NCBI GenBank assembly: GCA_029961045.1
Contig: JASBVN010000036.1
Span: 6,079 to 70,078 of the forward strand
DNA length: 64,000 bases
Reading direction: 5' to 3'
DNA from: Alicyclobacillaceae bacterium
Lineage (GTDB): Bacteria > Bacillota > Bacilli > Kyrpidiales > Kyrpidiaceae
Shown piece after piece: positions 13,370 to 34,798 of the stretch; the first letter of the stretch is position 1; the number at the start of each line of letters is the position of its first letter. A program made the translations under genes and the position numbers. A model generated the notes under the pieces. That model made no database searches. It was given only the letters and a program-made list of their open reading frames with translations, and was not told where the DNA came from.

Positions 13370-13660
13370 CAGGAGATGACCGGTAGCCCGATGTGATGGA
13401 TGTGAGGAGTGGACCCCGGCGACGAGAAATTCAACAGGAGGCCCCGGCGGGTACGGAAACGCTCGCGGGCAGGACTGACGCTGGCGGTGTGTTTGGGGGC
13501 CTGGCGATCATTTGGATTCCGGGAAACCTGTACTGGTTGGCTTTTGTGCCGGAAGTTTTGCCTTTGCCGGTTTGTTGTTCGGAGGCGTTGGTGTTGGCAT
13601 TTGCGGCATACTGGGGTGGTTGATGCCTCGATATGTCGAACTTCTCGGCGCTTTGCCATG
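13370..13660 (+). pseudogene. degenerate inverted copy of the RBS and first ~90 codons of the 4-TM gene at 15402-15893
   Basis: Hand alignment to the reverse complement of 15618-15906 shows a 54-nt perfect block. The start codon is GTG->GTA. Two G-runs are shortened and there are other indels, so the copy is frameshifted. Confidence 0.8.
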
Positions 13661-13716
13661 GAATCACCCGACTCTTAATCGGATGGTTGGGGGTTCGATT
13701 CCCTCACGGCCCACCA
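13661..13716 (+). pseudogene. tRNA-Lys(CUU) 3' fragment (anticodon arm to CCA only), att-like scar
   Basis: Anticodon loop CTCTTAA, T arm GGGGG-TTCGATT-CCCTC, 3' acceptor strand ACGGCCC, discriminator A and CCA. There is no D arm and no complementary 5' acceptor strand upstream. Confidence 0.7.
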
Positions 13717-13890
13717 CGCATCACGGTGCCGTTCCCTTCGCTTACAAAACTTAGTCGTGTGGCCTTAACTCAATCCCTTTGCTGTTGGCTTCCGAAAACC
13801 GACGGCGAGGATTTTTTTGTGCTTTGTGGAGATCGGGCGGGTTCGCAGCCGGACCGACATTAGACACCCGCCCATCCGGCCCTAACCTCA

Positions 13891-13936
13891 GAAAAAAGAA
13901 AGGGGGCATCCTTCGTGCCTCCGTTTTCGCCCCCTT
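13891..13936 (-). terminator. rho-independent terminator of the islet operon
   Basis: The minus strand reads AAGGGGGC-(21-nt loop)-GCCCCCTT followed by TCTTTTTTC. Confidence 0.65.
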
Positions 13937-13974
13937 CCCAAATGGACCACCCGATTGGATCGCCCCCGGTCCGA

Positions 13975-14331
13975 TCAGATCCGGACGCGTTCGATCAGTT
14001 GTTCGACGGACGACCGGAGTTCCCGGATTTCCGCCTCGAGACGTTGCAATCGTTCCTCCAATTGACGGACATCGTTCCGGACGTCGGAAGAGACCCCCTT
14101 CCGGTTGGAGCGCCACCGCTGGAACCGCTCGAACAACAGCAACAGACTGGGATCATTGACCAGCACGTCAATGATCGCATCCTCGAAAGTTTCCTTGTAC
14201 CCGGGCATGCCGTGGTCTTTGCCGTACAACAAGTGTTTTTGCAACAGCTCCTGAATCCGGGGATTGTGTGGTCCGCCGCTCTGCCGGTAAAAGGCTTCAA
14301 TTCGTTCTTCCATCGTCATCTTTTCTGTCAT
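13975..14331 (-). CDS. hypothetical soluble protein with a C-terminal coiled coil
   Basis: 118 aa. The ATG at 14331 lies 6 nt after AAAGGTGGGG. The C-terminus DVRQLEERLQRLEAEIRELRSSVEQLIERV is heptad-like. I recognise no family. Confidence 0.6.
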   Translation of the reverse strand: MTEKMTMEERIEAFYRQSGGPHNPRIQELLQKHLLYGKDHGMPGYKETFEDAIIDVLVNDPSLLLLFERFQRWRSNRKGVSSDVRNDVRQLEERLQRLEAEIRELRSSVEQLIERVRI

Positions 14332-14379
14332 GAGACTCCCCACCTTTCTCCTCTCTCCTCCGTTTTGCTCGGCCGATGA

Positions 14380-15405
14380 TCAACGCCCGCCTCCCAAAAG
14401 AGGTTTAAGAAGATTGGCGAGATCCAAGGGCGGCGGTGCGGAATTTACCTTTGCCGAACGCTCCCTTTGGCCTTGGGTTGACCCGGTAGAGCCGGACCCG
14501 TACATTGTGCCGTACGAAGACCCCGATCCGGGGAAAAAGGGTATCATCAATTCTCTGGGCATCTCGTTGACGGGGAAAATTTGCATTCCCGACCGCTGTC
14601 CGGTCGAATCCCCCGAACCGCCGCCGGCCGGACCAGACCGGCTGGAGGATGCCGAACGTTGTTCGCGGTTTTCGCCATAACCGGACCTCGCCGCCGCACC
14701 ACCGGACGTCGCTTCCGCCGTTCCCGCCGCGGCGTTCCCCGGCGATTCCGCTTTTTTTCCACCGTCGCCTTGTGGTTCGGAACGGGCTTCCCCTTCCGTT
14801 TTTCCCGCTGCCTCCGATTGATTGCCGGACAACAGACCGTTGATCAAATCGGCCACTCCCTGGCCGTTGATGAGGGTCAGCGATCGCAAGTCGATGAGGG
14901 GCGCCGTCCCGGAATCTTCGATCCTTTTGTCTGTATGCAGGTTCATCGACGGCATCGACACATGGCCGGCCGCCAACCGGCTACAACGCAAGAATACGTC
15001 TTGGAGCGCCAGTTGGGGAATCGACACATCCAGCTTCAAGCCGAGTCCCCGGAGTCCCAGGGCTGTGACATCGGCCACCAAGTCGTCCAGGACCACCGGT
15101 CCGGGGCTGTCGATGCGCATCCCCCACGAAAAATCCGACTGTGTTTCCGACTGGTTGCGGATCAGGCGGAGGCCGTACGCGGTCGCCCGGCGAATTTGCA
15201 ACCGGATCACCAGGCCCCCATCGGAGCCGGTCGCCAAACTGGGCAACAACCCCTGCGCTTCAATCCGGTCTGCGCGCACGACAATCCCCGATGCCGGAGC
15301 GGATTCCTGCGCGGCCGCCGTACCCCTTTCCGGGACACCGGCCCCGAAGACCGCGACGAGGATCGCCGTGGTCCCGGTGATCCATCGCCTCATTCCCGCT
15401 TTCAT
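14380..15405 (-). CDS. hypothetical secreted protein with a Gly/Ser/Ala-rich C-terminal tail
   Basis: The start ATG overlaps the upstream TGA (ATGA). Signal-like N-terminus MKAGMRRWITGTTAILVAVFGAG. The last ~130 aa are low complexity. The tracked 506-aa ORF is an out-of-frame extension over the neighbouring gene. Confidence 0.65.
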   Translation of the reverse strand: MKAGMRRWITGTTAILVAVFGAGVPERGTAAAQESAPASGIVVRADRIEAQGLLPSLATGSDGGLVIRLQIRRATAYGLRLIRNQSETQSDFSWGMRIDSPGPVVLDDLVADVTALGLRGLGLKLDVSIPQLALQDVFLRCSRLAAGHVSMPSMNLHTDKRIEDSGTAPLIDLRSLTLINGQGVADLINGLLSGNQSEAAGKTEGEARSEPQGDGGKKAESPGNAAAGTAEATSGGAAARSGYGENREQRSASSSRSGPAGGGSGDSTGQRSGMQIFPVNEMPRELMIPFFPGSGSSYGTMYGSGSTGSTQGQRERSAKVNSAPPPLDLANLLKPLLGGGR

Positions 15406-15893
15406 CGATACCACCGGCTCCAAGCCCGGTCCTCCTTTGAAGGAAGGGTCCAGATCTCCCCTCCGCCGTCCCTCCCGGAAGCCGCTCCATCGGAAGCCAA
15501 TCGAGGAGCCCTTGTTTCGGGGCTCCACGCGATACACAGCGCTCCGCCGATCACGCTGAGGAGCGTGCCCACCACCATGCCGCCCAAGGCACCAATGATC
15601 GACACAATAGAGATAATCATGGCAAAAGCGCCGAGAAGTCTGACATATCGAGGCATCAACCACCCCAGTACGCCGCACGCCAACACCAACGCTCCGAACA
15701 ACAAACCGGCAAAGGCAAAACTTCCCGGCACAAAAGCCAACCAGTACAGGTTTCCCGGAATCCAAATGATCGCCAGGCCCCCCAAACACACCAGCGTCAG
15801 TCCCGCCCGCGGGCGGCTTCGCACCCGCCGGGGGGCCTCCTGTTGAATTTCCCCGTCGCCGGGGTCCACCTTCACATCCATCACATCGGCCAC
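15402..15893 (-). CDS. hypothetical 4-TM integral membrane protein
   Basis: GTG start 7 nt after GGAGGG. Four hydrophobic helices, for example LTLVCLGGLAIIWIPGNLYWL and LLGAFAMIISIVSIIGALGG. It may resemble DUF6114, from memory and unverified. Confidence 0.7.
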   Translation of the reverse strand: MADVMDVKVDPGDGEIQQEAPRRVRSRPRAGLTLVCLGGLAIIWIPGNLYWLAFVPGSFAFAGLLFGALVLACGVLGWLMPRYVRLLGAFAMIISIVSIIGALGGMVVGTLLSVIGGALCIAWSPETRAPRLASDGAASGRDGGGEIWTLPSKEDRAWSRWYR

Positions 15894-15906
15894 CGGTCAT
15901 CCCTCC
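15618..15906 (-). repeat. right arm of the ~290-bp inverted repeat (functional copy)
   Basis: Its reverse complement aligns with 13370-13660. Homology ends exactly where the left copy abuts the tRNA fragment. Confidence 0.8.
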
Positions 15907-15907
15907 G

Positions 15908-16456
15908 TCACTGTGTCGGATTCAACTGGAACTGCAACCCCATGCCCGGAAGCGAGATGCTGTTGGCAAACAGGTAATGCCCCTGAATCACGGGTTTTTT
16001 CAAAACGATATTGGCAGCCCCCAGGGAAAATTTCTGGGTCGGATCGCCGCTATTGTGCTCGGCGACCTCCAGTTTCGCAAAATCCCCGTCGGAATTCAGC
16101 CGGCTCAGGTCGAGGACCAACCCCGACGCCTTGACGTCCTGGGCCGCGGTGATCATCACCCGCACCTTCCCCTGACCGGCAAAGTCCACATCCTTGTAGA
16201 GCTTCAAGCCCTTGATGACCGCTTCGAGGTTCGCGGCCCCCTGAGGAAATCCATCGGTCTCACTGGTAGGCCCTATCTTGGGAAGCAGCTTGAAATTTTG
16301 AATATTAATCTCATCGGCCTCAATATAAAATCCCCCAATCCCCGCAATGGGGACCGCCAGGGCCACTCCGCCCTTCCAGATGCCCAACACCAACGCGAAC
16401 AACATGGCGAGGGCTCCCGTCATGCTCAACCAGAACCATTTCCACCGATATCGCAT
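15908..16456 (-). CDS. hypothetical N-terminally membrane-anchored protein
   Basis: 182 aa. The ATG follows GAGGGGGAGAG. One N-terminal TM helix (WFWLSMTGALAMLFALVLGIW) precedes a beta-rich-looking domain. It may resemble DUF6230, from memory and unverified. Confidence 0.7.
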   Translation of the reverse strand: MRYRWKWFWLSMTGALAMLFALVLGIWKGGVALAVPIAGIGGFYIEADEINIQNFKLLPKIGPTSETDGFPQGAANLEAVIKGLKLYKDVDFAGQGKVRVMITAAQDVKASGLVLDLSRLNSDGDFAKLEVAEHNSGDPTQKFSLGAANIVLKKPVIQGHYLFANSISLPGMGLQFQLNPTQ

Positions 16457-16566
16457 GCTTCTCTCCCCCTCTGACCCACAAGATCATCACGCCGGAACGA
16501 TCGCCGATCCGTCCCGGGCCGCTGCGCGGCCGGGCCAACCCGACCGACATTTGGTTACCCGGATCG

Positions 16567-18318
16567 CTACGCCCGCCGCGACCGGAGGACGCGCCACAGG
16601 ACGTAACAGCCCAGGATCGTGGAACCCCACAGCACTCCGGTAGTCAGTCCGCGCAACCCCGGGACCGTCTGGACCGCCGGCGACCCGAACGAGATCAAGA
16701 TCGTCCCTCCGGCGAAAAACCCGGCCGACAAGATCCCCAGGGTAAACCGGTTGACGATTTTATTGATCAACACCGAGGTATCCGGCGCCATCCGGGTCTC
16801 CACAATGAATTTCAAATCGTTCCAGGCCAGCTTCTCGAGTATTTTGTTGATTCTTCTAGGAAATGTTCCGATAAGTTTGGCTGTTTCCGTCAAAAAACTC
16901 GCATTGGCGCGGTAGTTGAATCGCCGCCCTAGCCACCGGCGTAAAATTTGGACATCGGCGCTCTCCACCACCGTGTGGTAGGTGATTTCCGGACACAGCC
17001 AGCGGGCCGTCCCCTCGGCCGCCGAAAATCCCTTGGCCCAAAGCGCCAACCCGTTTGGGATCCGGCAGTAGTTTTTCATGCCGATTGTAATAATCTGGAT
17101 GACAAGGTTTCCCCAGTTGTACCGGCTGGCCTGTTCGCTGTTGACGTAATGAATGAGCATCGACCGGAGCTGGTCTTTCAACTCGACCGGATCGGTATAG
17201 GGAGTCGGTTGAATGATATCCAGCGCCGCCTCCGCCGCATCTTCCGCCTGGTTCAACCGGCAGTGCAGGAGCAGACGGAAAATCGCCTCCGTGTGGATGG
17301 AATCCATCCGACCGACCATGCCCCAGTCGATCAACACCGCCTTTTTGGTGTTCCGGTCGATCATGATGTTGGAGCCGTGGGGGTCGGCATGGTAAAAACC
17401 TTCGAGAAACGTCTTGATATAATAATGCGCCAAGTCGGTCATTCGTTCGAATCGCTCTTCAAAGGTTAAGAAATCAACTGGAAATTCTTTTAAATTCCAA
17501 CCGTCGATATATTCCATGACGAGCACGCGCGGGGTCACATGGTACACCCGGGGAATGTGCATGGTGGCAAACTCCGCGGCAATCCGCCGGTGCTCGTCCA
17601 TGTTCTTCGCTTCTGTTCGCAGATCCAGTTCGTCCACCGAACTGCTGTAATAATCTTCAATCAACCCGGGCAGATCGACGGCCGCCGCCAGATTGGCCGG
17701 CAGTAGGCGCTGAACCCGCCGGACCAACCTCTTGATGATCTGGATATCCGTCTGAAACAGCTTATCTACCACGGGCCGGACCACTTTGACGGCACACATC
17801 CGCCCATCCCGAAGTTGCGCCTGATACACTTGGGCCAGCGAGGCCGAGCCCAACGGTTCGACTCGGATCCATTCGAAGGTATCCAGCCCTTCCTCCAGCT
17901 CGTCGTCGAGGATCGTGGCGATATACGGAAATGGCATCGGTGGAACCTGATCCAGCAACTCGGCCAGCTCCGTGGTGATCGGCTCCGGAATCAGCTCCTG
18001 GCGAGTGACCAACACCTGTCCCAACTTAATGAAGGTCGGCCCCAATTCTTCAAACACCAGTCGCAGCCGGCGACCAATTTGACGAAGTTGTTCATCTTCT
18101 TCCTGGGAGCGCCGGCGCCCGAATAGTTTCCACCACCTGCGATCCTGTAGCAGATGCAGCAGGCCGTGTTTCGAGAGCGTTCGGACGATGGCCCGATATC
18201 GCCTTCCCTTGGTGATCCTGCTGCGCATCTCCTCGATTTCCCGCCGAAAACGTTCCTTTTCATGGGGCAACAACCGAGTTCTCGACACTTGAATCCTCTC
18301 TGCCGAAGTCGCGCGCAC
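16567..18318 (-). CDS. ABC1/UbiB atypical kinase family protein
   Basis: FEELGPTFIKLGQVLVTRQELIPEPITTELAELLDQVPP and the HADPHGSNIMI kinase-like motif, with two C-terminal TM helices. Confidence 0.85.
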   Translation of the reverse strand: MRATSAERIQVSRTRLLPHEKERFRREIEEMRSRITKGRRYRAIVRTLSKHGLLHLLQDRRWWKLFGRRRSQEEDEQLRQIGRRLRLVFEELGPTFIKLGQVLVTRQELIPEPITTELAELLDQVPPMPFPYIATILDDELEEGLDTFEWIRVEPLGSASLAQVYQAQLRDGRMCAVKVVRPVVDKLFQTDIQIIKRLVRRVQRLLPANLAAAVDLPGLIEDYYSSSVDELDLRTEAKNMDEHRRIAAEFATMHIPRVYHVTPRVLVMEYIDGWNLKEFPVDFLTFEERFERMTDLAHYYIKTFLEGFYHADPHGSNIMIDRNTKKAVLIDWGMVGRMDSIHTEAIFRLLLHCRLNQAEDAAEAALDIIQPTPYTDPVELKDQLRSMLIHYVNSEQASRYNWGNLVIQIITIGMKNYCRIPNGLALWAKGFSAAEGTARWLCPEITYHTVVESADVQILRRWLGRRFNYRANASFLTETAKLIGTFPRRINKILEKLAWNDLKFIVETRMAPDTSVLINKIVNRFTLGILSAGFFAGGTILISFGSPAVQTVPGLRGLTTGVLWGSTILGCYVLWRVLRSRRA

Positions 18319-18639: not shown

Positions 18640-20133
18640 TCAGGTCAGATTCACCCAAACACTCTTCACCTCGGTGTAATGTTCCAGAGCGTACCGCCCC
18701 ATTTCCCGGCCAAGGCCACTTTGTTTAAATCCGCCCCAGGGGCTGGTGGGGTCGAGGAGATTGTAACCGTTGATCCAAACCGTCCCCGCTCGCAATTCAT
18801 GAGCCACGCGAATGGCTTGCCTGACGTCCGACGTCCAGATACCGGCGGCGAGTCCGTAATCGGTGTCATTCGCCCGGCGAACGACGTCCTGCAGGCTTTC
18901 AAAGGGCATCACCGCCAGCACCGGGCCAAAGACTTCTTCCCTCGCAACCGTCATGTCATCCCGGGCCTCCAGCACCGTCGGCTCCACAAAATATCCGGAC
19001 GTGCCTTTGCGAATTCCCCCGGTCAGTCGTTTGGCTCCTTCTTCAAGGCCCTTCTCAATGTAACCCAACACCCGGTTCATATGCTGTTCACTCACCAGGG
19101 GACCCATTTGCGTGGCGGGATCCACCCCCACCCCTTGGCGAATGGCTTTGGCGCGATCCACCACCGCCTCCAGAACCCGGTCGTACACCTTTTTGTGCAG
19201 ATACAACCGCGACCCTGCGCAACAGACTTCCCCTTGATTGAAGAAGATACTCATCATAATGCCGCCGGCCACCATGTCCAGATCCGCGTCGGGAAACACG
19301 ATATTCGGCGACTTGCCTCCCAATTCCAAGGAAATGCGCTTGAAATTGTCCGCCGAGGCATGAACGATTTCCCGTCCTACCCGGGTGGAGCCGGTAAAAC
19401 TGATCTTATCCACCCCGCGGTGACGGGTCAGGGCCGCTCCCGCCGTGTGCCCGTACCCCGGGACCACATTGAGGACCCCCGGCGGAATGCCGGCCTCCAG
19501 AGCCAGCTCTCCCAAGCGCAAGGCGGTCAGCGGCGTCAATTCCGAAGGCTTTAATACGACCGTGTTTCCGCACGCCAGCGCCGGGGCGACCTTCCAAGAA
19601 GCGATCATGAGGGGGAAGTTCCACGGCACGATGGCCCCCACCACCCCCACGGGCTCCCGCCGGGTATAGACCAAATGCTGACCCGGCATTGAAACCGGAA
19701 GGTTTTCCCCGCTTAATTTCGTCGTCCACCCGGCGAAATACCGGAAGTGATCGACGGCGTACGGGATGTCCACTGCGGAGGTTTCGGAAATCGGTTTGCC
19801 GGTATCCAAAGACTCCAACTGGCTCAATTCCTCGGCGTGGGCCTCCAAAAGATCGGAGAGCTTCCACAGCAATCGGGCCCGTTCCATCGGACTGATGCTC
19901 TTCCAAGGGCCCTCCAGCGCCCTCCTGGCCGCTTGGACCGCGGCATCCACTTCCGGCTCTTCCGCTTCGTACAGCGTGGCCAACACCTCACCGGTAGCCG
20001 GGTCCACCGTTTGGAAGGTCTTCCCGGAGGCCGATGGCACCCACCGGCCCCCGATCAACATCTTCTTCGGCCCCGATTCGATAAACGCCCGGACGCGATC
20101 CGACACCACCGGGAGTTGCAACGTGCTGGTCAT
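18640..20133 (-). CDS. NAD(P)-dependent aldehyde dehydrogenase
   Basis: ELGGKSP and FFNQGEVCCAGSR (catalytic Cys region). The ATG at 20133 follows GAGGTG, 10 nt after the R2lox stop. Confidence 0.9.
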   Translation of the reverse strand: MTSTLQLPVVSDRVRAFIESGPKKMLIGGRWVPSASGKTFQTVDPATGEVLATLYEAEEPEVDAAVQAARRALEGPWKSISPMERARLLWKLSDLLEAHAEELSQLESLDTGKPISETSAVDIPYAVDHFRYFAGWTTKLSGENLPVSMPGQHLVYTRREPVGVVGAIVPWNFPLMIASWKVAPALACGNTVVLKPSELTPLTALRLGELALEAGIPPGVLNVVPGYGHTAGAALTRHRGVDKISFTGSTRVGREIVHASADNFKRISLELGGKSPNIVFPDADLDMVAGGIMMSIFFNQGEVCCAGSRLYLHKKVYDRVLEAVVDRAKAIRQGVGVDPATQMGPLVSEQHMNRVLGYIEKGLEEGAKRLTGGIRKGTSGYFVEPTVLEARDDMTVAREEVFGPVLAVMPFESLQDVVRRANDTDYGLAAGIWTSDVRQAIRVAHELRAGTVWINGYNLLDPTSPWGGFKQSGLGREMGRYALEHYTEVKSVWVNLT

Positions 20134-20143
20134 CTCCGACACC

Positions 20144-21037
20144 TCACGAGAGAACCCCGACTTCCTGTTCGCTGATCCCGTAGATTTCGTCGACAGGCCG
20201 TCCCTTGGCCCGCTCCAGGACGTCCATGCGAATCTGGAATTGTTTCGAGGCATATTGCACAAAATCATCCGGTTCCAATCCGAAGGGATACGGCTTCTCA
20301 TCCCCTAACAGTTCATTGATGACTCCAATGGCGTACGGGAGCAGTTCTCCCATCCGCTTGTTAATCGTTTTCCAGACCGTGTCATGCTCCGCAATCAGCC
20401 GGGACAGCAGGTAGGTTCCGTATCCGATATGGCGGGATTCGTCCCGCTTCAGATAGTCCACCAGCTTGATCAGGCCCGGCATTTTCCCTTGTTTGGCCAG
20501 GGCATTATAGAACGCGTAATAGCCGGTTTCGGCCAATACGCCTTCCACAATCATGTTGTAGGTGACCGACGCCTCGGCTTGAGCCTCCGGAGACGGGTCG
20601 TGGATCAACCGCTCCATGGCCTGGGGAAGGTATTCGTAGAAAATCTTTCGATAGTTCTCTTTATGATACCCCGCCAAATCTCCGCGATACTCTGCCACCT
20701 CGTCGAAGAATCGACGGAAACTTTCGACATGTTTGGCCTCCTCGAACAGGAAGGTCGTCAGATACATTTCCTCTTCCAGCCGACCTTCGGAAGCCGCAAC
20801 GCGAATGAGCGGAAGAAGGTCCCGCGTCACCGCCTCTTCCCCGGCTTGGAACAACGAACAAATTTTCAGAATCCAATCTTGTTCGGACGGAGTAAATGTC
20901 TTCCAATCCTCTCGGTCCTTTGTGAAATCCAGTTCTTTGGGGTCCCAAATTCCCAGCCTCTTCGCCTTGTGATACAACCGCATCGGCAGAAGTTCATGGT
21001 TCAGCCCCCGTTCACTGGTCGTCGCGAACACCCGCAT
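20144..21037 (-). CDS. R2-like ligand-binding oxidase (ferritin-like Mn/Fe protein)
   Basis: Ligand pattern AGEEAV, FEEAKH, YNMIVEG, RDESRH (E67, E100, H103, E165, E200, H203) plus V70 and Y160. The spacing matches the Geobacillus R2lox numbering I recall, offset by 2. Confidence 0.8.
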   Translation of the reverse strand: MRVFATTSERGLNHELLPMRLYHKAKRLGIWDPKELDFTKDREDWKTFTPSEQDWILKICSLFQAGEEAVTRDLLPLIRVAASEGRLEEEMYLTTFLFEEAKHVESFRRFFDEVAEYRGDLAGYHKENYRKIFYEYLPQAMERLIHDPSPEAQAEASVTYNMIVEGVLAETGYYAFYNALAKQGKMPGLIKLVDYLKRDESRHIGYGTYLLSRLIAEHDTVWKTINKRMGELLPYAIGVINELLGDEKPYPFGLEPDDFVQYASKQFQIRMDVLERAKGRPVDEIYGISEQEVGVLS

Positions 21038-21106: not shown

Positions 21107-22150
21107 TCAGTTTAGCTTGATCACCACCTTTCCAGCCTGTCTCTGGTCGAACAAACGGTAGCCTTCCGGGGCCTCTTCCAGCGATATCCGGTGCGTCACC
21201 ACCACCGTCGGGTCGATGCGTCCTCCGCGAACCAGGGCCAGGACCGCATCGATGTCGCGATGGATGTTGGCCACGCCGATGCGGAAGGTCAGGTCCTTGA
21301 CCAAACTTTGCATGAGCGGGAAAGCGAACCGATCTTCCGAGGTCACCCCGACCGCCGAGACCCGCCCCCCACCTCGCACCAGCTCAAAGGCAAGCTGCAG
21401 GGTCGCCGGCCCCCCCACCGCTTCGATGACGACATCCACCCCTTCGCCGTCGGTCCACTCGTTGATTTTCGAGACGGGGTTGACTTCCTTAGACGGAACC
21501 GGAATGGCCCCCAGTCGAGCGGCCAGCTCCGTCCGCTCCCGAACCAAATCCACGGCAAACACTTTGGAAGCGCCGACGGCGAGGGCGCTCATCACCGCCA
21601 TGATGCCTACCGGGCCGCATCCGACGACGGCGACCGTCTCGCCCGGAGACAACCCGCTGTTGCGGACGGCTCCGTAGGCGGTGGTCAAGATGTCTCCCGC
21701 GAAGAGGGCTTGTTCATCCGTCAACCCTTCGGGCACCTTGCGGAGAGTATAGTCCGCAAAGGGGATCCTCGCGTATTCCGCTTGGGTGCCTTCCAGATTT
21801 CCGAAGGCCATTCCATAACCGAGCACTCCGCCCCGTTCGCACTGGTTGTAAGCCCCCCGCCGGCATTGCCGGCAGCACCCACAGGCCACATGAAAAGCCC
21901 CTACCACCCGATCGCCCTTTCGAAACGCCCGGACTTGGGGGCCCACCTCTTCCACGATCCCGACATATTCGTGGCCCATGACCATCCCAGGCAGCATCCC
22001 GGGAATCTTCCCATGGTACAAGTGAAGATCGGAGCCGCAGATGGCCGCCGTAGTCACCCGCAAAATCACGTCGGCAGGGTCCTTGATGACGGGGTCGTTC
22101 ACCGTTTCAACCCTGACGTCGCCGACCCCCTGAAAGGTGACCGCCTTCAT
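21107..22150 (-). CDS. zinc-dependent alcohol dehydrogenase
   Basis: GHEYVGIVEEVG, structural-Zn cysteines CGCCRQCRRGAYNQC and the Rossmann motif VVGCGPVG. The ATGA overlaps the SCP2 gene stop. Confidence 0.9.
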   Translation of the reverse strand: MKAVTFQGVGDVRVETVNDPVIKDPADVILRVTTAAICGSDLHLYHGKIPGMLPGMVMGHEYVGIVEEVGPQVRAFRKGDRVVGAFHVACGCCRQCRRGAYNQCERGGVLGYGMAFGNLEGTQAEYARIPFADYTLRKVPEGLTDEQALFAGDILTTAYGAVRNSGLSPGETVAVVGCGPVGIMAVMSALAVGASKVFAVDLVRERTELAARLGAIPVPSKEVNPVSKINEWTDGEGVDVVIEAVGGPATLQLAFELVRGGGRVSAVGVTSEDRFAFPLMQSLVKDLTFRIGVANIHRDIDAVLALVRGGRIDPTVVVTHRISLEEAPEGYRLFDQRQAGKVVIKLN

Positions 22151-22575
22151 CGCAACCCCTCCGGAAGTTCCGTGTCAATCCCCAGGGCGCTTTCCACCAA
22201 GTACTTGGCCGCCATGACATACCCCGACAAGGTCGACATGTTGCCTTTTACCAACTTCAGCCTCCCCCGCATGATCGAAGAGATCGCCTCCAACTCGCCG
22301 TCCAGCACCTGTTTCCATGTATACGGATCGGCGCTGATCACATAGGGTGCTTTCTCTTGATCCTCCGGAGTGGCCGCCCTCGCCTCGCGACATTCTCCGT
22401 GCCACAGATCCAAGTACACGGCGCGGTCCTCCTCCAAACCCACAGACGGATCCCGCTCCATCACCAGCACGAGGGGCCACTCCCACGTCTGGGCCGATTG
22501 GCGGTATTGGACGTTTTGATTTAACCTCTCCCCCCACTGTTTTGCCCACTCCGGTCCAAAGACGGGTACACCCAA
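22147..22575 (-). CDS. SCP2 sterol/lipid-carrier domain protein
   Basis: 142 aa. TWKQVLDGELEAISSIMRGRLKLVKGNMSTL is a typical SCP2 C-terminal pattern. TTG start after AAGGAGGAG. Confidence 0.7.
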   Translation of the reverse strand: MGVPVFGPEWAKQWGERLNQNVQYRQSAQTWEWPLVLVMERDPSVGLEEDRAVYLDLWHGECREARAATPEDQEKAPYVISADPYTWKQVLDGELEAISSIMRGRLKLVKGNMSTLSGYVMAAKYLVESALGIDTELPEGLR

Positions 22576-22722: not shown

Positions 22723-23670
22723 TCAGCAGACGGACAGTTCCCGCAAAAGCCGTTGGGCAGCCGCCTCTCCGGCAGCGATCGCCTCCCGGGCCCGGTCGAA
22801 GCGATGGGCGTCGATGTGCTCCACATCGGGATGGAGGACCCAATCGGCGGTTCGGGCCTTGTCTTGTTGGGCCGCCAATTGGGCTTCCAAAACATCGATG
22901 CTGGCGAAAAGGGCGCGCAAAAGACCGTAGTGGGTTCGCGGTTCGGGAGGATGTCCGCCGAGAACACCGATAATCTCCAGCGCGCGGGACAAGGGGGAAG
23001 GGGGGATCGCATCCCGGGCTTCCTGCAACAAAGACCGCAACCGGTTCAAGCGAACCCGGGCAAAGGTGGCTGTGACGGTCCAGGTGTCACGGGCTGATCC
23101 GACGTCCACAGCTACCGTCAGGGCCGGAGACAAGGTGCGGGCCACGTCGGAAGGGACGCGGTTGCTCACGCCGCCGTCGACCAACAACCGGGCTCCGCGG
23201 TGTACGGGGGCAAAAAGGCCCGGGACGGAGATACTGGCCCGCACGGCGTCGGTAAGCGAACCGTCCCGCAACACGACGGTTTCACCCGTCCGGAGATCCG
23301 TCGCCACAACGGCTACAGGCATCCTCAGGTCCCGAAATTCAACATCTCCGATGAGCGTGCGCAGTTGTTCGGAAATTCGGTCCCCTTGAATCAGCCCGCC
23401 TCGAAAAAAAGCAAAATCGGCGAATTTTATCAGATCCGCCATGCGAATGTCCAGGGCGGCCTTCTCCAAGCGCTCCAGGGCCCCCGCCGCATAGGCCGCG
23501 GCAACCAGGGCGCCCATGCTGCATCCCGCGATTCCCGCAATGGGGACGCCCTCCCTCTCGAAAGCCCGCAGAACGCCGATGTGGGCCAGCCCCCGGGCCG
23601 CGCCTCCCCCCAAGGCCAAGTTCACGCCACTTGCAAGATTGTTGGGTGTTCGCGCCTCTTCCTTTGGCAT
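22723..23670 (-). CDS. patatin-like phospholipase
   Basis: GGGAARG oxyanion motif, GCSMG (GxSxG) and the VDGG catalytic Asp motif. AAGGAGGG RBS. Confidence 0.88.
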   Translation of the reverse strand: MPKEEARTPNNLASGVNLALGGGAARGLAHIGVLRAFEREGVPIAGIAGCSMGALVAAAYAAGALERLEKAALDIRMADLIKFADFAFFRGGLIQGDRISEQLRTLIGDVEFRDLRMPVAVVATDLRTGETVVLRDGSLTDAVRASISVPGLFAPVHRGARLLVDGGVSNRVPSDVARTLSPALTVAVDVGSARDTWTVTATFARVRLNRLRSLLQEARDAIPPSPLSRALEIIGVLGGHPPEPRTHYGLLRALFASIDVLEAQLAAQQDKARTADWVLHPDVEHIDAHRFDRAREAIAAGEAAAQRLLRELSVC

Positions 23671-23881
23671 TTGTACCCTCCTTTTCCCGTTCCCGGCCAG
23701 CGGTTCGGCAAGTCTCCGATCCTTTAATGTCCCCCCGCCCGGGTCTTATACTCGCCGTAATGACAAAATGAAGGGGTACCCCAATAAATGAGAGGCATCC
23801 CCTCGAATGTTTCTAGATAGTACACCTTTTTCTCCCGTCGCTTGTCCTACAGCACAGCCCGAAAAAAGGGGAGATGCGACA

Positions 23882-25417
23882 GTGTTTGCTCAAGGACCTG
23901 TCTTTGCCCTTCCCTTGCTGTCTCACCGATTGTGGAACAAAATCGCCGAGCTGACCGGCAACCGGTACTCCGAGTTCCTCGTACCGTGGACCGTCAAACT
24001 CAACAGCATGGAGCTCACAGAGCGCCAAAGGGAAGCTCTCCAGGACTTGCTGGCGTTTCTCTTTCAGCAATTGCGGGCGGCCGGAGGACAGGGGTCGACC
24101 CTCATCCGATCGTTTCAGGCGTACATGATCGACAACCACCAGGTGTTGGAGCCGGTTCATGTGTTGGCGGCCCTCGCTTATTTTGAGGAGACGGTGTGCG
24201 AACTTTTGCGCCGGAAGCTCGACAAAGCCGACGCCAATCCGGCGTGCGCGTGGATCCGCAGCCTGGTTTTGAATCTGCAATACACCACCTTCGAAGCCAC
24301 CTGTCTGCCCGTATGTCCGTCCCGGGAAAACAACGAAGAATGGTCGTCCCCCTTAGTTCGGATGCTGAACCGCACCGCGTTGCGGGAACGGTGGCAATGG
24401 GTAGCCCTTTTTACTTCGGCGCCCCAAATCCGGATCTTGGAATTGGCCGTTCGGGATGAAGAGGGCACCGGTTGGAAAGCGGCAGCCGTCCAGTTGGATT
24501 TGACACGGCAGGCCCTGGCCGGCCTTCAGGGGCACGACCCGCAGATTTGCCGCCAAACGGTCATCCCGGGCATCGGGCTGGCCGCTGCGGGGGCGGCGGA
24601 TCCCCCCGGCCGCCACCGCTTGGCTCAGATCGCCCGTTGGCTGCAAGCGGCTTTTGAGTTGTCGGCCCATCTCGGCGCTCCGCCGTCTCAGAGTTCCAAC
24701 CTGCTCCGGCGGTACGAAGCCGTCCTGCAATTCGACGAAGCCCTTCTCCAATCGAGGGACCTCCAGGACATTTTTTCGGCAACCGTGGAAAACGCGTGCC
24801 GGATCGGCGGGTTTCGCCGCAGCGCCCTCTTCTGGTACACACCGCTGACCCGCACGATCCAAGGCGTGCACTCCTTCAACGTCCCTCGGGAAGACATCCA
24901 GAGCATCCGCGAACCGGTCGAAAATTTGTCCGGAATCCAAGAAGTGTTCGAGAAGCGCAAACCCGTTCATTTTGAGCGCATCCACCAAAGATTGCCGGAT
25001 CACTATGTCGAGTCTTTCCATCTATCTTCTTTGCTGGTCTGTCCGATCCCCGGCACTGCGGAAACACCGCCGATGGCGGTCCTGTTGATCGACCAGGACG
25101 GCGTGCCCTTTCAGGCGGACGAAGGAACCCTTACCGTCCTCGAGGCCATGATGTCCCGGGTATCTAAAACGGTCTCCGCCCGGTTGCTCAATCCGGTGAC
25201 AAAAGCGAGCCTCCCCTCCTCGGGGGTGTTGACTCCCCGAGAACAACAGATCCTCCAATTCATCGCAGAAGGATTGGATACGAAAGAAATTTCTCAACAA
25301 CTCCATCTTAGTGAATATACTGTATCAGAATATGTCGGAACAATACTCAGAAAATTGCGTGCATCCAACCGGGCGGAAGCCGTCGCCAAAGCGATACGCC
25401 AGAATATCATCCAATAA
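23882..25417 (+). CDS. LuxR-family transcriptional regulator with a central GAF-like domain
   Basis: C-terminal HTH LTPREQQILQFIAEGLDTKEISQQLHLSEYTVSEYVGTILRKLRASNRAEA. GTG at 23882 lies 8 nt after AAAGGGGAG; the tracked ATG at 23807 is an alternative. Confidence 0.8.
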   Translation: MFAQGPVFALPLLSHRLWNKIAELTGNRYSEFLVPWTVKLNSMELTERQREALQDLLAFLFQQLRAAGGQGSTLIRSFQAYMIDNHQVLEPVHVLAALAYFEETVCELLRRKLDKADANPACAWIRSLVLNLQYTTFEATCLPVCPSRENNEEWSSPLVRMLNRTALRERWQWVALFTSAPQIRILELAVRDEEGTGWKAAAVQLDLTRQALAGLQGHDPQICRQTVIPGIGLAAAGAADPPGRHRLAQIARWLQAAFELSAHLGAPPSQSSNLLRRYEAVLQFDEALLQSRDLQDIFSATVENACRIGGFRRSALFWYTPLTRTIQGVHSFNVPREDIQSIREPVENLSGIQEVFEKRKPVHFERIHQRLPDHYVESFHLSSLLVCPIPGTAETPPMAVLLIDQDGVPFQADEGTLTVLEAMMSRVSKTVSARLLNPVTKASLPSSGVLTPREQQILQFIAEGLDTKEISQQLHLSEYTVSEYVGTILRKLRASNRAEAVAKAIRQNIIQ

Positions 25418-26172: not shown

Positions 26173-26188
26173 ACACACATATGTGTGT
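26173..26188. promoter_or_regulatory. perfect 16-bp palindrome ACACACATATGTGTGT upstream of xdhC
   Basis: Read directly from the sequence. It is flanked by a further GAGTCT...AGACTC pairing and lies ~40 nt before the xdhC GTG. Confidence 0.5.
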
Positions 26189-26228
26189 GTCGAATCAGAC
26201 TCCTGTTGCACAAAGGAGGGGACCACCC

Positions 26229-27278
26229 GTGTCACGCATCGATGAAGCGCGCGAAGTGTTCGGCCGAATGGAACAAGCCTGGTCGGACGGGGAACAATCC
26301 GCCCTCTTGACGATCACCCAAGTCAAAGGCTCCGCCTACCGCCTTCCCGGCGCCAAAATGATGATGACGGAAACCGGCAAAATGCTGGGTACACTCAGCG
26401 GCGGTTGCCTCGAATCGGATCTCTACGGATGGGCTGAAAAGGCGATCAAAGAGGGGCGGCCCCGCCTCGTCCATTACGATCTCAGTGAAAGCGAACTGTG
26501 GACCCTTGGAATCGGTTGCAAAGGAACGATGGAAGTCGCCATCTTTCCCATCCGTCCGGAAGATCCCTTTTGGCAATCGGTGCGGAAAGCTGTGGCCCGG
26601 GATCGGGTCATCTCACTGGCCATCGAATTGCCGAGCGGAATCCGCGCCGCATTTGAAGGGACGACTCCAATCGCCGGAGATGTGGACCGGTTGCCGGAAC
26701 CCGTCGTCCAGCAGTTGACAAGCCGCGTCTGGAGCCGGACGAAAGCGGAAGTGGCCGAAGTGGATGGGCGGCGTTTCTACATCGACACGATGCGGCCCAA
26801 CGAACGGTTGATCATCTGCGGCGCAGGCCACGACGCCGTACCCGTGGCGGCACTCGCCGCCAAGTGCGGATTTCGCGTCACCGTGCTGGATCCGCGCAAA
26901 GAGTTTAATGGAGCCGGCCGGTTCCCCGAGGCCGAACACCTGATCACCGAACCGGACCAAGCCGATCCCGCCCAACTCACGGACAGTTGGTGGCTGATCA
27001 TGAACCACTTGCAAATGCGCGACGAAGCGGCACTGCGTCTGGCCTTGCAGGCCAAGCCCAAATACGTGGGCGTGCTCGGCCCCTTGTCGCGGACGCTCGA
27101 GATGCTCAACCACATCGGCGCCGACATGAACAGCGGTCCGATCTACGCGCCCGTTGGACTGAACGTCGGAGCAGAAACGATCGACGAAGTGGCGGTTTCG
27201 ATCGTGTCCGAATTGCTCGCCGTGCGATCCGGCCGTTCGGGAGAACCCTTGCGCGGAAAAGAAAAAATCCACAATTGA
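26229..27278 (+). CDS. XdhC/CoxI-family molybdoenzyme maturation protein
   Basis: VKGSAYRLPGAKMMM...GTLSGGCLESDL N-terminal domain and LIICGAGHDAVP Rossmann-like domain. GTG at 26229 follows AAAGGAGGGG. Confidence 0.85.
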   Translation: MSRIDEAREVFGRMEQAWSDGEQSALLTITQVKGSAYRLPGAKMMMTETGKMLGTLSGGCLESDLYGWAEKAIKEGRPRLVHYDLSESELWTLGIGCKGTMEVAIFPIRPEDPFWQSVRKAVARDRVISLAIELPSGIRAAFEGTTPIAGDVDRLPEPVVQQLTSRVWSRTKAEVAEVDGRRFYIDTMRPNERLIICGAGHDAVPVAALAAKCGFRVTVLDPRKEFNGAGRFPEAEHLITEPDQADPAQLTDSWWLIMNHLQMRDEAALRLALQAKPKYVGVLGPLSRTLEMLNHIGADMNSGPIYAPVGLNVGAETIDEVAVSIVSELLAVRSGRSGEPLRGKEKIHN

Positions 27279-27282
27279 CGGC

Positions 27283-28410
27283 TCAGGGCGCCGCTGTTCG
27301 CAGCGCCCCGCCCGTCACCACCTTTTTCCAAGTCGCGACGTCGTGCACATCGACGAAGGCGTCGATATAGGGCAAGGCCGCCGACATCCCCGTCGACTTC
27401 GGCTCATATCCCGGTTCGCCGAGCAGGGGATTGATCCACACCACCCGCCCGACACGGGAGGCCAAATCGCGCATGGCCGAATGCAAACGCTGCGGATGAC
27501 CGGCGTCGAATCCATCCGACACGATGATGACGCACGTACGCCGGTGCAGGAGACTGGGATACCGGCGAAGCAACTGCTCCAGCGCGCCGCCGATCCTCGT
27601 GCCGCCCCGCAATCCCGGCAAATCGGAAAAGGGGATGCCCGCCACCCCTTTCCGCGCGATGAGGGACGTCACCCGCAACAGGCGGGTGGAAAAGAGAAAA
27701 ATTTGTGTGCGCGCCCGGGCGCGCGTGAACGACCAGGCGAGGGAAGTGATAAAAGGCGCATACGGCTTCATGGATCCGGAAATATCGATCATCAGGACAA
27801 TTCGCGGTTTGTCGGGACGGCGTTTGCGCATTTTGAGGACAAAGGGCTCCCCCGCACGGCGCAAGGCGCACCGCATGGTTTGGCGAAGATCGATTTTCTC
27901 CTTGCCCCGTAACCGCCACTTGCGGCCGCGCGGCGCATTCATCCTGCGAACGGCCAACCGGGTCAGCTGAACCACGTCCTTCAACACCCGCTCATCCGCC
28001 CGCAACGCAAACCGTTCGCCGTCGTCGGGATGATAACCGGCCAGAAACCCCTGCACAACATCCACCGGCGGACGCGACGCCCTTTCACCGGCACCGGCAC
28101 CGCCGGCCAACTCATCCGGTTGCAGGCGGCGCTTTTCCTCCAGGCGCACCTCCCGACCGAAAAAATATTGTTCAAACAAATTCGGAAAAATTCCCCATTC
28201 CGCCGGCGTCCGCGCATAAATGGCCCGGAACGCGCTACAGACCTCCTCCATGCAGTCCACGTTCAATTCGGCCAAGGCGGCAATCGCCGTCAACGTTTCG
28301 GGTATTCCCGCACGAAATCCGCGCTTTCGCAGCCAAGGCGCAAAGCCGATCACTTGCTTCACGATGTCGCCCGTCAAGCGGCCGAGCACTTCAGCCGTCA
28401 GGCGCTCCAT
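27283..28410 (-). CDS. coxE: VWA-domain CoxE-like protein
   Basis: MIDAS motif VLMIDISGSM, with the CoxE-like length and position after coxD. Confidence 0.8.
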   Translation of the reverse strand: MERLTAEVLGRLTGDIVKQVIGFAPWLRKRGFRAGIPETLTAIAALAELNVDCMEEVCSAFRAIYARTPAEWGIFPNLFEQYFFGREVRLEEKRRLQPDELAGGAGAGERASRPPVDVVQGFLAGYHPDDGERFALRADERVLKDVVQLTRLAVRRMNAPRGRKWRLRGKEKIDLRQTMRCALRRAGEPFVLKMRKRRPDKPRIVLMIDISGSMKPYAPFITSLAWSFTRARARTQIFLFSTRLLRVTSLIARKGVAGIPFSDLPGLRGGTRIGGALEQLLRRYPSLLHRRTCVIIVSDGFDAGHPQRLHSAMRDLASRVGRVVWINPLLGEPGYEPKSTGMSAALPYIDAFVDVHDVATWKKVVTGGALRTAAP

Positions 28411-29258
28411 AGCACATCGAGTCCCTTCTCTCGCAAGACGTCCATGTCTTCCTGAGTCTTCAACAAACATCCGAGGGTCAGCCGTATCACATCTTCATCC
28501 AATTCCTCCGCCCCCAGTTCCGTCAAGGCCTGGGCAAAATCGATGGATTCGGCCAATCCCGGGGGCTTGAGCAGCGACAACTTGCGCAGGCGCCGCACGC
28601 CGCGCGCCACTTGCTTGGCCAGTTGGGGGGCAATCTCCGGGACGTGCAAGGAGATGATGTCCGCTTCTTGTTCCAGCGACGGGTAATCGACCCAAACGTA
28701 CAGACAACGGCGGCGCAAAGCGTCCGACAAATCGCGCGTGCGATTGGACGTCAAGATCACAATGGGCGGCTCGTCGGCGCGAAATGTCCCCATCTCGGGA
28801 ATGGTAATTTGAAATTCCGACAGAAATTCTAACAACAACGCCTCAAATTCCTCGTCGGCGCGGTCCACTTCGTCGATCAACAGGACGGGCGCCGGCCTCT
28901 CCCTCAGTGCCCGCAAAAGCGGCCGTTCGATCAGAAACGGCTCACTGTAAAGCGCCGCCTGGTTCACGGCGCCATCGGCCAATGCCGTGCGCGCCATCAG
29001 CAACTGTTTGGGGTAATCCCAATCGTACAGCGCCTGACTCGCGTCCAACCCTTCATAGCACTGCAAGCGGACCAGGTTCACGGAACGAACGGTGGCGAGG
29101 GCTTTAGCCAGTGCCGTTTTTCCCACACCTGCAGGGCCTTCCAACAACAACGGACGGGCCAGCCGCTGCGCTAAGTACAATACAGTGGCCAGCCCTTCCT
29201 CCGCCACATAGTGGGCACGGCGCAATTCCTCCTGCAGTCGGCGCACCTGTTCGTTCAT
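28398..29258 (-). CDS. coxD: MoxR-type AAA+ ATPase CoxD
   Basis: Walker A LLEGPAGVGKT and Walker B VLLIDEVDRA. The ATG at 29258 follows GGAGGAGGAA. Confidence 0.85.
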   Translation of the reverse strand: MNEQVRRLQEELRRAHYVAEEGLATVLYLAQRLARPLLLEGPAGVGKTALAKALATVRSVNLVRLQCYEGLDASQALYDWDYPKQLLMARTALADGAVNQAALYSEPFLIERPLLRALRERPAPVLLIDEVDRADEEFEALLLEFLSEFQITIPEMGTFRADEPPIVILTSNRTRDLSDALRRRCLYVWVDYPSLEQEADIISLHVPEIAPQLAKQVARGVRRLRKLSLLKPPGLAESIDFAQALTELGAEELDEDVIRLTLGCLLKTQEDMDVLREKGLDVLWSA

Positions 29259-29283
29259 CCGTTCCTCCTCCACTTCGGTCCGT

Positions 29284-29778
29284 TCAACCTTCGTCCGACG
29301 CCGCTTTCTCCGCTACCGCGGCCCTCGTTTCCTTCGACAGGACATTCAGCGCATTCTTCAGATTGGTGAAGACCTTTTCTGTAATTTTCCGCGCCTCTCC
29401 ATCGATCAAACGTCCTCCGAGACTGGCGATCGGCCCGCTGACCACCGCGTCGCACCGCCATTTCATGTGGGTTCCGCCATCCACGTCGCTGAGCGACATT
29501 TCGGCCTTCATATCGACCCCGCTGCCCATTCCGCCGCCGCGAATCGCCAGTGAAGCCGCCGCCCCCGGTTCCGTCACGGTTAATTCGCAGGTGAGATCAA
29601 ACTTGCCGCGCACGGGTCCCACGCCGACCCTCACCAAAGTGCGAAAACGATTTTCACTCTCCACGTTCAATTCGATTAAATCGGGAATGCACGTGCCCAT
29701 TTTATGAGGATCCGTGACAAACGCCCAAACGGTCTCCCTCGGCCGATCAATTGTAAATTCTCCCTCGTATGTCCGCAT
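29284..29778 (-). CDS. coxG: SRPBCC-fold CoxG protein
   Basis: MRTYEGEFTIDRPRETVWAFVTDPHKMGTCIPD... is a typical CoxG N-terminus. GAGAGGAGG RBS. Confidence 0.8.
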   Translation of the reverse strand: MRTYEGEFTIDRPRETVWAFVTDPHKMGTCIPDLIELNVESENRFRTLVRVGVGPVRGKFDLTCELTVTEPGAAASLAIRGGGMGSGVDMKAEMSLSDVDGGTHMKWRCDAVVSGPIASLGGRLIDGEARKITEKVFTNLKNALNVLSKETRAAVAEKAASDEG

Positions 29779-29849
29779 CGCGGTGCCTCCTCTCTTGTTC
29801 TGACCAGGTCCTTATAGGGCCGTCTTCAGCCCCGGCATTCGGCGTTTCC

Positions 29850-30863: not shown

Positions 30864-30872
30864 CCTTTCGAC

Positions 30873-30893
30873 CCGGCGGCCTAAGGCCGCCGG
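30873..30893 (-). other. intercistronic perfect hairpin between coxL and the coxF-like gene
   Basis: CCGGCGGCC-TAA-GGCCGCCGG is a 9-bp perfect stem. Confidence 0.4.
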
Positions 30894-30929
30894 ATCTTCC
30901 CCTCCTCCATCCAACCTGGCGATCCGAGT

Positions 30930-34658: not shown

Positions 34659-34798
34659 CGCGAAACCTCCTTTGTCTACCAGAGTGAGGTTGCAAGAGGT
34701 TACAAGAGGACGGGTGGCGCACTGCAATGCGAAGAATTTCCGGCTTTAAGGGCGATTTCAAGATGATAATGAAGGATATTTCTGCTTCCTGCGACCAT

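Follow-up and report, generated by a model that had tools for sequence, protein, structure and literature searches.

P21 and P16 of Geobacillus thermoleovorans B23 are the best described relatives of the genes studied here. Alkanes induce both proteins, the more so the longer the chain, and neither responds to palmitate, triglycerides or DCPK (Kato et al. 2009, PMC2676291). Their induction coincides with the onset of alkane degradation, and they are visible as Coomassie bands in whole-cell lysates (PMC2676291). Both were recovered in the insoluble fraction and assigned to the membrane, and Edman sequencing demonstrated the loss of 38 and 45 N-terminal residues from P21 and P16, respectively (PMC2676291). 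In G. kaustophilus the two proteins are GK2770 and GK3040. PMC10867098 gives GK2770 as the P21 orthologue in the gk2769-gk2782 cluster, and there the R2lox protein of the cluster, GkR2loxI (GK2771), is proposed to be an alkane monooxygenase/hydroxylase. In this study we analyzed a locus of four genes, P1 to P4, within a 64,000-nucleotide stretch of contig JASBVN010000036.1 from an Alicyclobacillaceae bacterium (assembly GCA_029961045.1); this whole stretch is referred to below as the window. P1 and P4 are 100% identical to proteins of a metagenome-assembled genome labelled 'Alicyclobacillaceae bacterium', which places the window in that lineage, near Kyrpidia.

As judged from homology and gene order, the four genes make up the envelope-facing part of a conserved R2lox cluster that is shared by several Gram-positive families and matches the gk2769-gk2782 type. 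An earlier reading of the window, made from its letters alone (the original prediction), had described them as an uncharacterised and horizontally acquired four-gene envelope operon in an islet between housekeeping genes. The window adds one more instance of a known arrangement together with two annotation-level insights, and no new type of system. These results bear on the uptake of water-insoluble long-chain alkanes by monoderm thermophiles and on the in vivo substrate of R2lox (PMC9314684).

P1 and P2 are a DUF6230-DUF6114 pair related to the P21 and P16 loci

P1 exceeds the gathering score of Pfam DUF6230 (PF19741; 30.6 bits against 27.5) and matches profile positions 5-139 of 145. P1 shares with P21 and P16 the DUF6230 family, a long hydrophobic leader, an A-x-A site and a beta-rich domain of ~150 aa, although sequence identity is just 32-35% (32% to Geobacillus P21, E 4e-17; 35% to a P16 orthologue, E 3e-23). 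All three proteins carry the motif [AV][PF][IL]xGxGxF directly after A-x-A, at the experimentally determined mature N-terminus of P21 and P16 and at the predicted one of P1: P1 reads VALA followed by VPIAGIGGFYIEAD, P21 reads AFA followed by AFPLSGVGGFTISAD, and P16 reads AYA followed by VPISGVGEFTVQFD. By simple hydropathy, the only hydrophobic stretch of P1 spans residues 7-41, so the original prediction was correct in allowing for one such segment. Its role as a transmembrane (TM) anchor is less likely. Because the cleavage site determined by Edman sequencing in P21 and P16 aligns with the junction between VALA and VPIAGIGGF in P1, residues 1-34 are most likely a long signal peptide that is predicted to be cleaved. 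The predicted mature protein comprises about 148 aa (~16 kDa) and is predicted to be all-beta.

The published proteins can be placed directly in Geobacillus genomic loci. A Geobacillus open reading frame (ORF) that matches DUF6230 (PF19741) and lies next to R2lox holds the published P21 peptides IDVVVTGGNVSGQNLK and TDNPLNVIDLSAPSLTLDK as well as the first 12 residues of the published P21 N-terminal peptide. Similarly, the P16 N-terminus VPISGVGEF was found in DUF6230 ORFs of five Geobacillus loci, each with a short DUF6114 gene after the DUF6230 ORF and a GAF-LuxR regulator before it. Both P21 and P16 have a DUF6114 gene next to them, as P1 does, and P21 resembles P1 further in adjoining genes for R2lox, aldehyde dehydrogenase (ALDH), alcohol dehydrogenase (ADH), ABC1 and P4. 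In contrast, the DUF6114 partner of P21 is long (~320 aa) and no P3-type gene accompanies it, whereas P1 has a short DUF6114 partner, as P16 does, plus P3. The description of the locus as uncharacterised holds only in part, since the expression, processing and localisation of P21 and P16 are published (PMC2676291) and PMC10867098 offers a functional proposal for the cluster.

We modeled P1 with AlphaFold2 (AF2) from an 18-sequence alignment. The model has a mean predicted local distance difference test (pLDDT) score of 63 and consists of an N-terminal helix followed by ten strands; a Foldseek search of the PDB with this model returned no match below E 0.04. In PMC10867098, both P21 and P16 are described from their AlphaFold DB models as a beta-barrel with an N-terminal helix. 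The P1 model is consistent with that description, yet it is no independent proof of it. We also considered a catalytic triad in P1, Ser65/Asp116/His160, which is invariant in close homologues. This candidate was rejected because conservation of S65 and H160 does not extend to P21 or P16, the position of S65 being Glu in P21 and that of H160 being Val in P16.

P2 matches Pfam DUF6114 (PF19609) with 76.1 bits (gathering score 27.9; E 4e-21). Residues 30-125 are continuously hydrophobic and fit four TM helices by inspection, in agreement with the 163-aa 4-TM protein first proposed. The predicted topology places the N-terminus (RRVRSRPR) and the C-terminus in the cytoplasm and leaves very short external loops, and the family alignment contains conserved Gly and Pro positions. 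The original prediction had also likened the first two proteins to the DUF6230/DUF6114 neighbour pair, and this proved accurate: both proteins exceed the Pfam gathering scores and their genes are adjacent. The Pfam pair is mostly actinobacterial, but the window's genes belong to a Firmicutes branch.

To assess linkage, we used 28 non-redundant loci, a biased sample in that it was retrieved via homologues of the same proteins. Within this sample, 27 of the 28 loci have DUF6230 immediately 5' of DUF6114, and a third, DUF6230-like gene follows the pair in 16. A homologous GAF-LuxR regulator is found within 10 kb of the pair in 21 of the loci, while R2lox, ABC1 and P4 occur in 8, 9 and 8 loci, respectively. 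The genome scan used a five-sequence DUF6114 alignment, and its patterns reached one actinobacterial locus only. That locus, from a member of the Micromonosporaceae (L032), exemplifies the actinobacterial pair, and P1 is only about 23% identical to this example. The pair is also present in a Haladaptatus genome.

A different arrangement was observed in Halorientalis marina (locus L030, 8372-10408), where the DUF6114 module forms the C-terminus of a polytopic ORF of ~680 aa with three internal repeats. The fused ORF adjoins an SCP2 gene, and a DUF6230 gene was not detected nearby. Hexadecane induction of R2lox in a Halorientalis species is reported in work cited in PMC9314684 and PMC10867098.

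P3 is a probable divergent relative of DUF6230

P3 begins with a hydrophobic region that is too short for a TM call and resembles a signal peptide, and it ends in a low-complexity tail of about 130-146 residues of which 45% are Gly, Ser or Ala. Hydropathy and composition thus bear out what had been proposed for both ends of the protein. Between them lies a domain of residues ~36-195 (coordinates 14821-15300). A direct Pfam scan gave no match for P3. When P3 was aligned to DUF6230 with hhalign, the two matched with 95.6% probability (E 1.2e-8) over 123 columns, nearly the whole domain. Additionally, 14 of 38 members of the P3 family match Pfam DUF6230 at E 0.01 or better (best E 9.8e-9). Because of the hhalign match and these family matches, the N-terminal domain of P3 is most reasonably seen as a distant relation of DUF6230 that falls below the Pfam threshold, which would make P3 a second DUF6230 protein in the locus. 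The predicted paralogy of P3 and DUF6230 is a new point of the present analysis.

Relatives of P3 are few: a word-indexed search yielded 4, and an exhaustive HMMER search yielded 40 clusters among 1.84 billion representatives. The N-terminal domain of ~160 aa is conserved in the third gene of the Thermoactinomycetaceae loci. The tails are variable, and elsewhere in the family they are HPr-like, DUF948-like, apolipoprotein-/perilipin-like or collagen-like. Several long C-terminal regions match DUF948, Apolipoprotein A1/A4/E, ApoLp-III or Perilipin_2 (E 1e-4 to 4e-6). These matches could reflect amphipathic helix repeats like those in lipid-surface coats, or they could be compositional coiled-coil matches.

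In three Thermoactinomycetaceae orthologues of P3 (L004 8117-9172, L005 8078-9274 and L006 8469-9437), a C-terminal domain matches Pfam PTS-HPr (best E in the family 2.5e-15). The N-terminus of these orthologues resembles a signal peptide, and export of an HPr-like domain would be unexpected.

P4 is linked to the ABC1/UbiB gene

P4 lacks any hydrophobic segment, and 10 of 11 a/d positions in its C-terminal heptad register are hydrophobic, as anticipated for a soluble protein with a heptad-like C-terminus. Its conserved helical head of ~60 aa contains the motifs FxxQSGGP and HLxxGKDHG. The AF2 model (pLDDT 79) has three short helices and a 57-residue helix at 61-117. We found no PDB match for P4 by sequence or by fold (Foldseek), and the PDB sequence matches obtained with the profiles of P1 and P4 amounted to nothing but coiled-coil noise. 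The 63 homologues of P4 come from Kyrpidia, Alicyclobacillus, Thermoactinomycetaceae, Thermaerobacter, Geobacillus and Carbobacillus, and no Pfam family covers them.

The gene neighbourhood of P4 is informative. In Geobacillus, Thermaerobacter, Paludifilum, Planifilum, Carbobacillus and Bacillaceae G1, where the DUF6230 trio is located elsewhere or is absent, the P4 gene lies directly 3' of ABC1. From this placement, the predicted partner of P4 is the ABC1/UbiB gene and not the envelope trio, a point that is also new. Because P4 follows ABC1 when the trio is elsewhere or absent, the four genes are two modules, in which an inserted envelope trio (P1-P2-P3) separates P4 from the kinase gene that it normally adjoins. 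The proposed four-gene operon consists of coupled genes, as stated originally, and is not a single unit.

No catalytic or nucleotide-binding domain was detectable in the four proteins in Pfam, NCBIfam and PADLOC searches, or in PDB sequence searches with P1 and P4, which upholds the original prediction on this point. The NCBIfam scan gave sub-threshold matches only, and no PADLOC anti-phage defence model matched P1 to P4 at E 0.01 or better. P3 and P4 matched no Pfam, NCBIfam or PADLOC model.

Two relatives of the locus differ around P4. On a contig from Logan SRR3924100 (locus L003, 6009-11629), the orthologues of P1 and P2 are missing, and P3 and P4 come straight after ABC1. Beyond P4, this contig carries a second DUF6230 gene, which is P21-like, together with a long DUF6114 gene (318 aa) and a gene for a Gly/Tyr-rich 167-aa protein. 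Because of this arrangement, we consider the DUF6230/DUF6114 modules to be interchangeable and the locus to be recombination-prone. In Kyrpidia spormannii (locus L001, 9528-12482), the opposite strand carries, past P4, a gene for a sortase along with four small ORFs that have no Pfam match. The small ORFs are possibly sortase substrates, and nothing comparable is present in the window.

The four genes end a syntenic R2lox cluster

The four genes close a co-directional run that consists of SCP2, ADH, R2lox, ALDH, ABC1/UbiB, P1, P2, P3 and P4 (Table 1). The R2lox assignment is clear in the PDB search, where true R2 subunits of ribonucleotide reductase match the ORF at 6e-13 or worse and R2lox structures match far better (Table 1). 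The same gene order, ending in homologues of all four genes, is found in K. spormannii, Laceyella putida, Melghirimyces profundicolus and Alicyclobacillus pomorum, and Planifilum has the cluster in a rearranged version. The ubiB-type gene, together with those for ALDH, R2lox, ADH, SCP2 and the GAF-LuxR regulator, is thus syntenic with the four genes, contradicting their description as an islet between housekeeping genes.

The gk2769-gk2782 cluster and the window have in common R2lox, the Zn-dependent ADH, ALDH, the ABC1 kinase, a P4 homologue and DUF6230, with DUF6114 present in related loci. The two differ in gene order, and only gk2769-gk2782 contains genes for beta-oxidation (acyl-CoA dehydrogenase, enoyl-CoA hydratase, thiolase and CoA ligase). 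The searched text of PMC10867098 contains no discussion of the DUF6114, P4 or ABC1 genes.

Taken together, the P21/P16 family belongs to a conserved three-gene envelope module made up of DUF6230, DUF6114 and a second, divergent DUF6230 protein. This module is repeatedly wired into the SCP2-ADH-R2lox-ALDH-UbiB cluster, in which P4 constantly accompanies the UbiB-type kinase. A functional context is gained in this way for two Pfam DUFs and for two families that lack a name.

A possible role in substrate delivery and its alternatives

We propose that the envelope genes serve to capture a long-chain hydrophobic substrate at the envelope and to hand it over to the R2lox/ADH/ALDH pathway, an account that we consider about as likely to be right as wrong. 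The contextual identification described above is much firmer than the transport step. In outline, P1 and P3 would be exported by Sec and cut by signal peptidase after A-x-A, a cleavage that has been seen only in the homologues P21 and P16. Their all-beta DUF6230 domains would remain at the outer face of the membrane, for which the recovery of P21 and P16, and of these two only, in the insoluble fraction is the precedent. The Gly-rich 4-TM protein P2, always encoded alongside, may hold P1 and P3 at the membrane. Long-chain aliphatics, such as alkanes or related lipids, would there be bound by P1 and P3 and released into the lipid bilayer. Extraction of the substrate on the cytoplasmic side could fall to the UbiB-type ATPase/kinase, which is membrane-anchored, and to P4 as its coiled-coil partner, and SCP2 would carry it to R2lox for hydroxylation and then to ADH and ALDH. 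The locus is in this respect a testable parts list for substrate delivery to R2lox.

A wider and more doubtful proposal, which we put forward tentatively, is that DUF6230 (P1, P3), DUF6114 (P2) and the UbiB-type kinase with P4 constitute a hitherto unrecognised route by which organisms that lack an outer membrane take up long-chain alkanes or lipids. If true, this route would span Bacillales, Actinobacteria and some haloarchaea, would deliver the long-sought physiological substrate to R2lox, and would be the functional equal of FadL/AlkL or Mce built from unrelated parts. FadL/AlkL channels and Mce systems are analogous only in the proposed role, the capture of hydrophobic compounds encoded beside an oxidation pathway. 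No relation in sequence or fold to the window's proteins was detected, FadL appearing in Foldseek only among non-significant matches (E 0.8 or worse). The host, a monoderm, lacks an outer membrane, and the parts, a small secreted beta domain and a 4-TM protein, are unlike those of FadL/AlkL or Mce.

Several observations weigh against a role in substrate delivery. The P1 model is of low confidence and has no structural match, so it does not demonstrate a ligand-binding barrel. The linkage counts come from the biased sample described above, and many DUF6230-DUF6114 loci lack both R2lox and ABC1 within 10 kb. Pfam annotation of the flanks found no beta-oxidation genes adjoining the window's cluster. 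As for R2lox itself, PMC10867098 bases the claim of alkane hydroxylation on assays of E. coli lysates, and a structural study from 2022, which contains no gene-context analysis, still called the function of R2lox undetermined (PMC9314684). Disruption of the P16 and P21 genes was not achieved (PMC2676291). Induction, processing and localisation are shown for the Geobacillus proteins P21 and P16 only.

The strongest alternative is that DUF6230 proteins are abundant coat proteins, anchored by DUF6114, that shield or stiffen the membrane or alter surface hydrophobicity without any transfer of substrate. In one variant, the changed surface hydrophobicity would make cells adhere to droplets of oil or lipid in the presence of hydrophobic compounds. 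The abundance of P21 and P16 on Coomassie-stained gels and their insolubility fit such a coat, as does the statement by Kato et al. that the proteins may act in 'uptake, tolerance, or degradation' (PMC2676291). The tails of the P3 family, whether low-complexity, collagen-like or made of amphipathic repeats, are typical of surface or coat proteins, and the many DUF6230-DUF6114 loci without oxidation genes nearby are also in line with this idea. However, the genes are found repeatedly within the SCP2-ADH-R2lox-ALDH-ABC1 run and with a common type of regulator, and induction tracks the onset of alkane degradation (PMC2676291). A function purely in tolerance would leave the tight linkage to a lipid carrier and a UbiB-type protein unexplained. 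We therefore judge a coat function to be unlikely, though it is clearly ahead of the remaining alternatives.

An enzymatic role was considered as well, in which DUF6230 proteins are secreted esterases, kin to the 'cholesterol esterase' of Streptomyces lavendulae, and the fatty alcohols or acids that they free from wax or steryl esters feed ADH and ALDH. Kato et al. noted N-terminal similarity of P21 and P16 to that esterase, but over the full length the similarity is negligible (BLASTP E 5.7 and about 10; PMC2676291). A patatin-like lipase gene is present in the window's cluster, and ADH and ALDH would suit fatty alcohol products. Nevertheless, S65 is replaced in P21 and H160 in P16, and no hydrolase family was matched in Pfam, NCBIfam, PDB sequence or Foldseek searches. 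An esterase function is accordingly improbable.

Rearrangement beside the operon

Two features next to the four genes had been taken as signs of acquisition, a tRNA 3' scar and a duplicated gene fragment (Table 1). Both are present. The tRNA remnant is a sub-threshold match to the Rfam tRNA model (22.9 bits, gathering score 29; E 0.032), its 5' third being replaced by the end of a DUF6114 fragment, and ARAGORN found no tRNA in the window. The fragment is 91% identical to resident P2 (15625-15901, minus strand), with 13 gap columns and a broken frame. Its identity to the K. spormannii gene is only 74%, and we therefore interpret it as a duplication within the lineage.

A close relative, L037, whose P3 is 96% identical, locates the breakpoint. 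Its DNA is identical to that of the window through the T-run of the P4 terminator and is unrelated beyond, and the arrangement of inverted repeat and tRNA is absent within the 550 nt available past the terminator. Because L037 diverges only after the terminator, the tRNA remnant, the fragment and the gltX junction represent a recent, lineage-specific rearrangement beside the operon and are no evidence for its acquisition.

These findings bear on the original idea that the genes are a self-contained, horizontally acquired envelope islet, functionally unrelated to their neighbours. Besides the adjoining tRNA remnant and fragment, that idea can draw on the patchy distribution of the DUF6230-DUF6114 pair, which reaches haloarchaea and from which we conclude that the pair has undergone lateral transfer over long time scales. 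Against it, the genes from SCP2 to ABC1 are syntenic with the four genes across two families of Bacillales, P4 is linked to ABC1 and not to the trio, and the breakpoint relative to L037 lies outside the operon. The G+C content is not anomalous either, since the operon (0.56-0.66) shows no discontinuity with its flanks (0.53-0.65). The islet reading is largely refuted by synteny and is very unlikely to be correct, and the claim of horizontal acquisition is not supported. Least credible of all is an invertible switch, in which the 280-bp inverted repeats formed by the fragment and by 15625-15901, 91% identical and flanking a 1,970-bp segment, would invert the 3' part of P2 with P3 and P4 for on/off expression: the left copy has 13 frame-breaking gap columns, nothing in the diverged arms points to ongoing gene conversion, the ORFs annotated by Pfam in the 6.8-36 kb part of the window that this annotation covered include no recombinase gene, and L037 lacks the arrangement.

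Gene couplings and neighbouring genes

The four coupled minus-strand genes are present at the positions first given, with the couplings described. The GTG start of P2 lies 14 nt past the P1 stop and 7 nt past GGAGGG, and the TGA of P2 overlaps the ATG of P3 as ATGA. Folding confirmed the proposed terminator after P4, a hairpin followed by the T-run UUUCUUUUUUCU. A generic terminator scan had missed it because the hairpin loop exceeds the limit of the scan. The same promoter/terminator scan found no sigma-70-like promoter for the P1-P4 operon. The spacer between ubiB and P1 (110 nt, 16457-16566) holds a G+C-rich hairpin, CCCGGCCGC-GCA-GCGGCCCGGG, without a T-run, and no recognisable sigma-70 promoter was seen in it. 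In Laceyella and Melghirimyces, the spacer from ABC1 to P1 is only 35-45 nt. A count of 8-mer presence in 27 loci revealed no operator motif shared across taxa upstream of DUF6230 genes.

Table 1. Features of the four-gene locus and its surroundings, in window coordinates.
Feature	Coordinates	Strand	Description
P1	15908-16456	-	182 aa; DUF6230, P21/P16 family
P2	15402-15893	-	163 aa; DUF6114 Gly-rich integral membrane protein
P3	14380-15405	-	341 aa; signal-peptide-like N-terminus, DUF6230-like domain, low-complexity tail
P4	13975-14331	-	118 aa; predicted cytoplasmic, coiled-coil C-terminus
Intrinsic terminator	13888-13939 (approx.)	-	12-bp G+C-rich hairpin, then U-run, just 3' of P4
ABC1/UbiB atypical kinase	16567-18318	-	Pfam ABC1 E 9e-48; two C-terminal hydrophobic helices; immediately upstream of P1
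Aldehyde dehydrogenase	18640-20133	-	Pfam Aldedh E 3e-186; likely start MTSTLQ, 497 aa as in orthologues
R2lox	20144-21037	-	Best PDB matches R2lox 7qbk, 3ee4, 4hr0 at 1e-66 to 1e-69
Zn-dependent alcohol dehydrogenase	21107-22150	-	Pfam ADH_N, ADH_zinc_N
SCP2-type lipid carrier	22147-22575	-	Pfam SCP2 E 3.8e-6; first gene of minus-strand run
Patatin-like phospholipase/lipase	22723-23670	-	Pfam match; between SCP2 and GAF-LuxR regulator
GAF + LuxR/GerE-type regulator	23807-25417	+	Pfam match; divergent from cluster
tRNA remnant	13646-13713	+	Anticodon arm (loop CUU), T arm, 3' acceptor strand
DUF6114 pseudogene fragment	13375-13654	+	Inverted copy of P2 ribosome-binding site and codons 1-89

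The patatin-like gene was not detected in other annotated loci. On one side, the window's cluster is flanked by genes for a 2-oxoacid dehydrogenase complex, an FAD oxidase and gltX, and on the other by a Cox/Xdh-type molybdoenzyme cluster. The latter, a molybdenum hydroxylase cluster at 26181-34727, comprises two XdhC/CoxF-like genes, one with a YHS domain, as well as genes for a CoxE-like VWA protein, a CoxD-like AAA protein, and the large and FAD-binding subunits. It is followed by a gene for a GAF-HisKA_3 sensor kinase (34911-36167).

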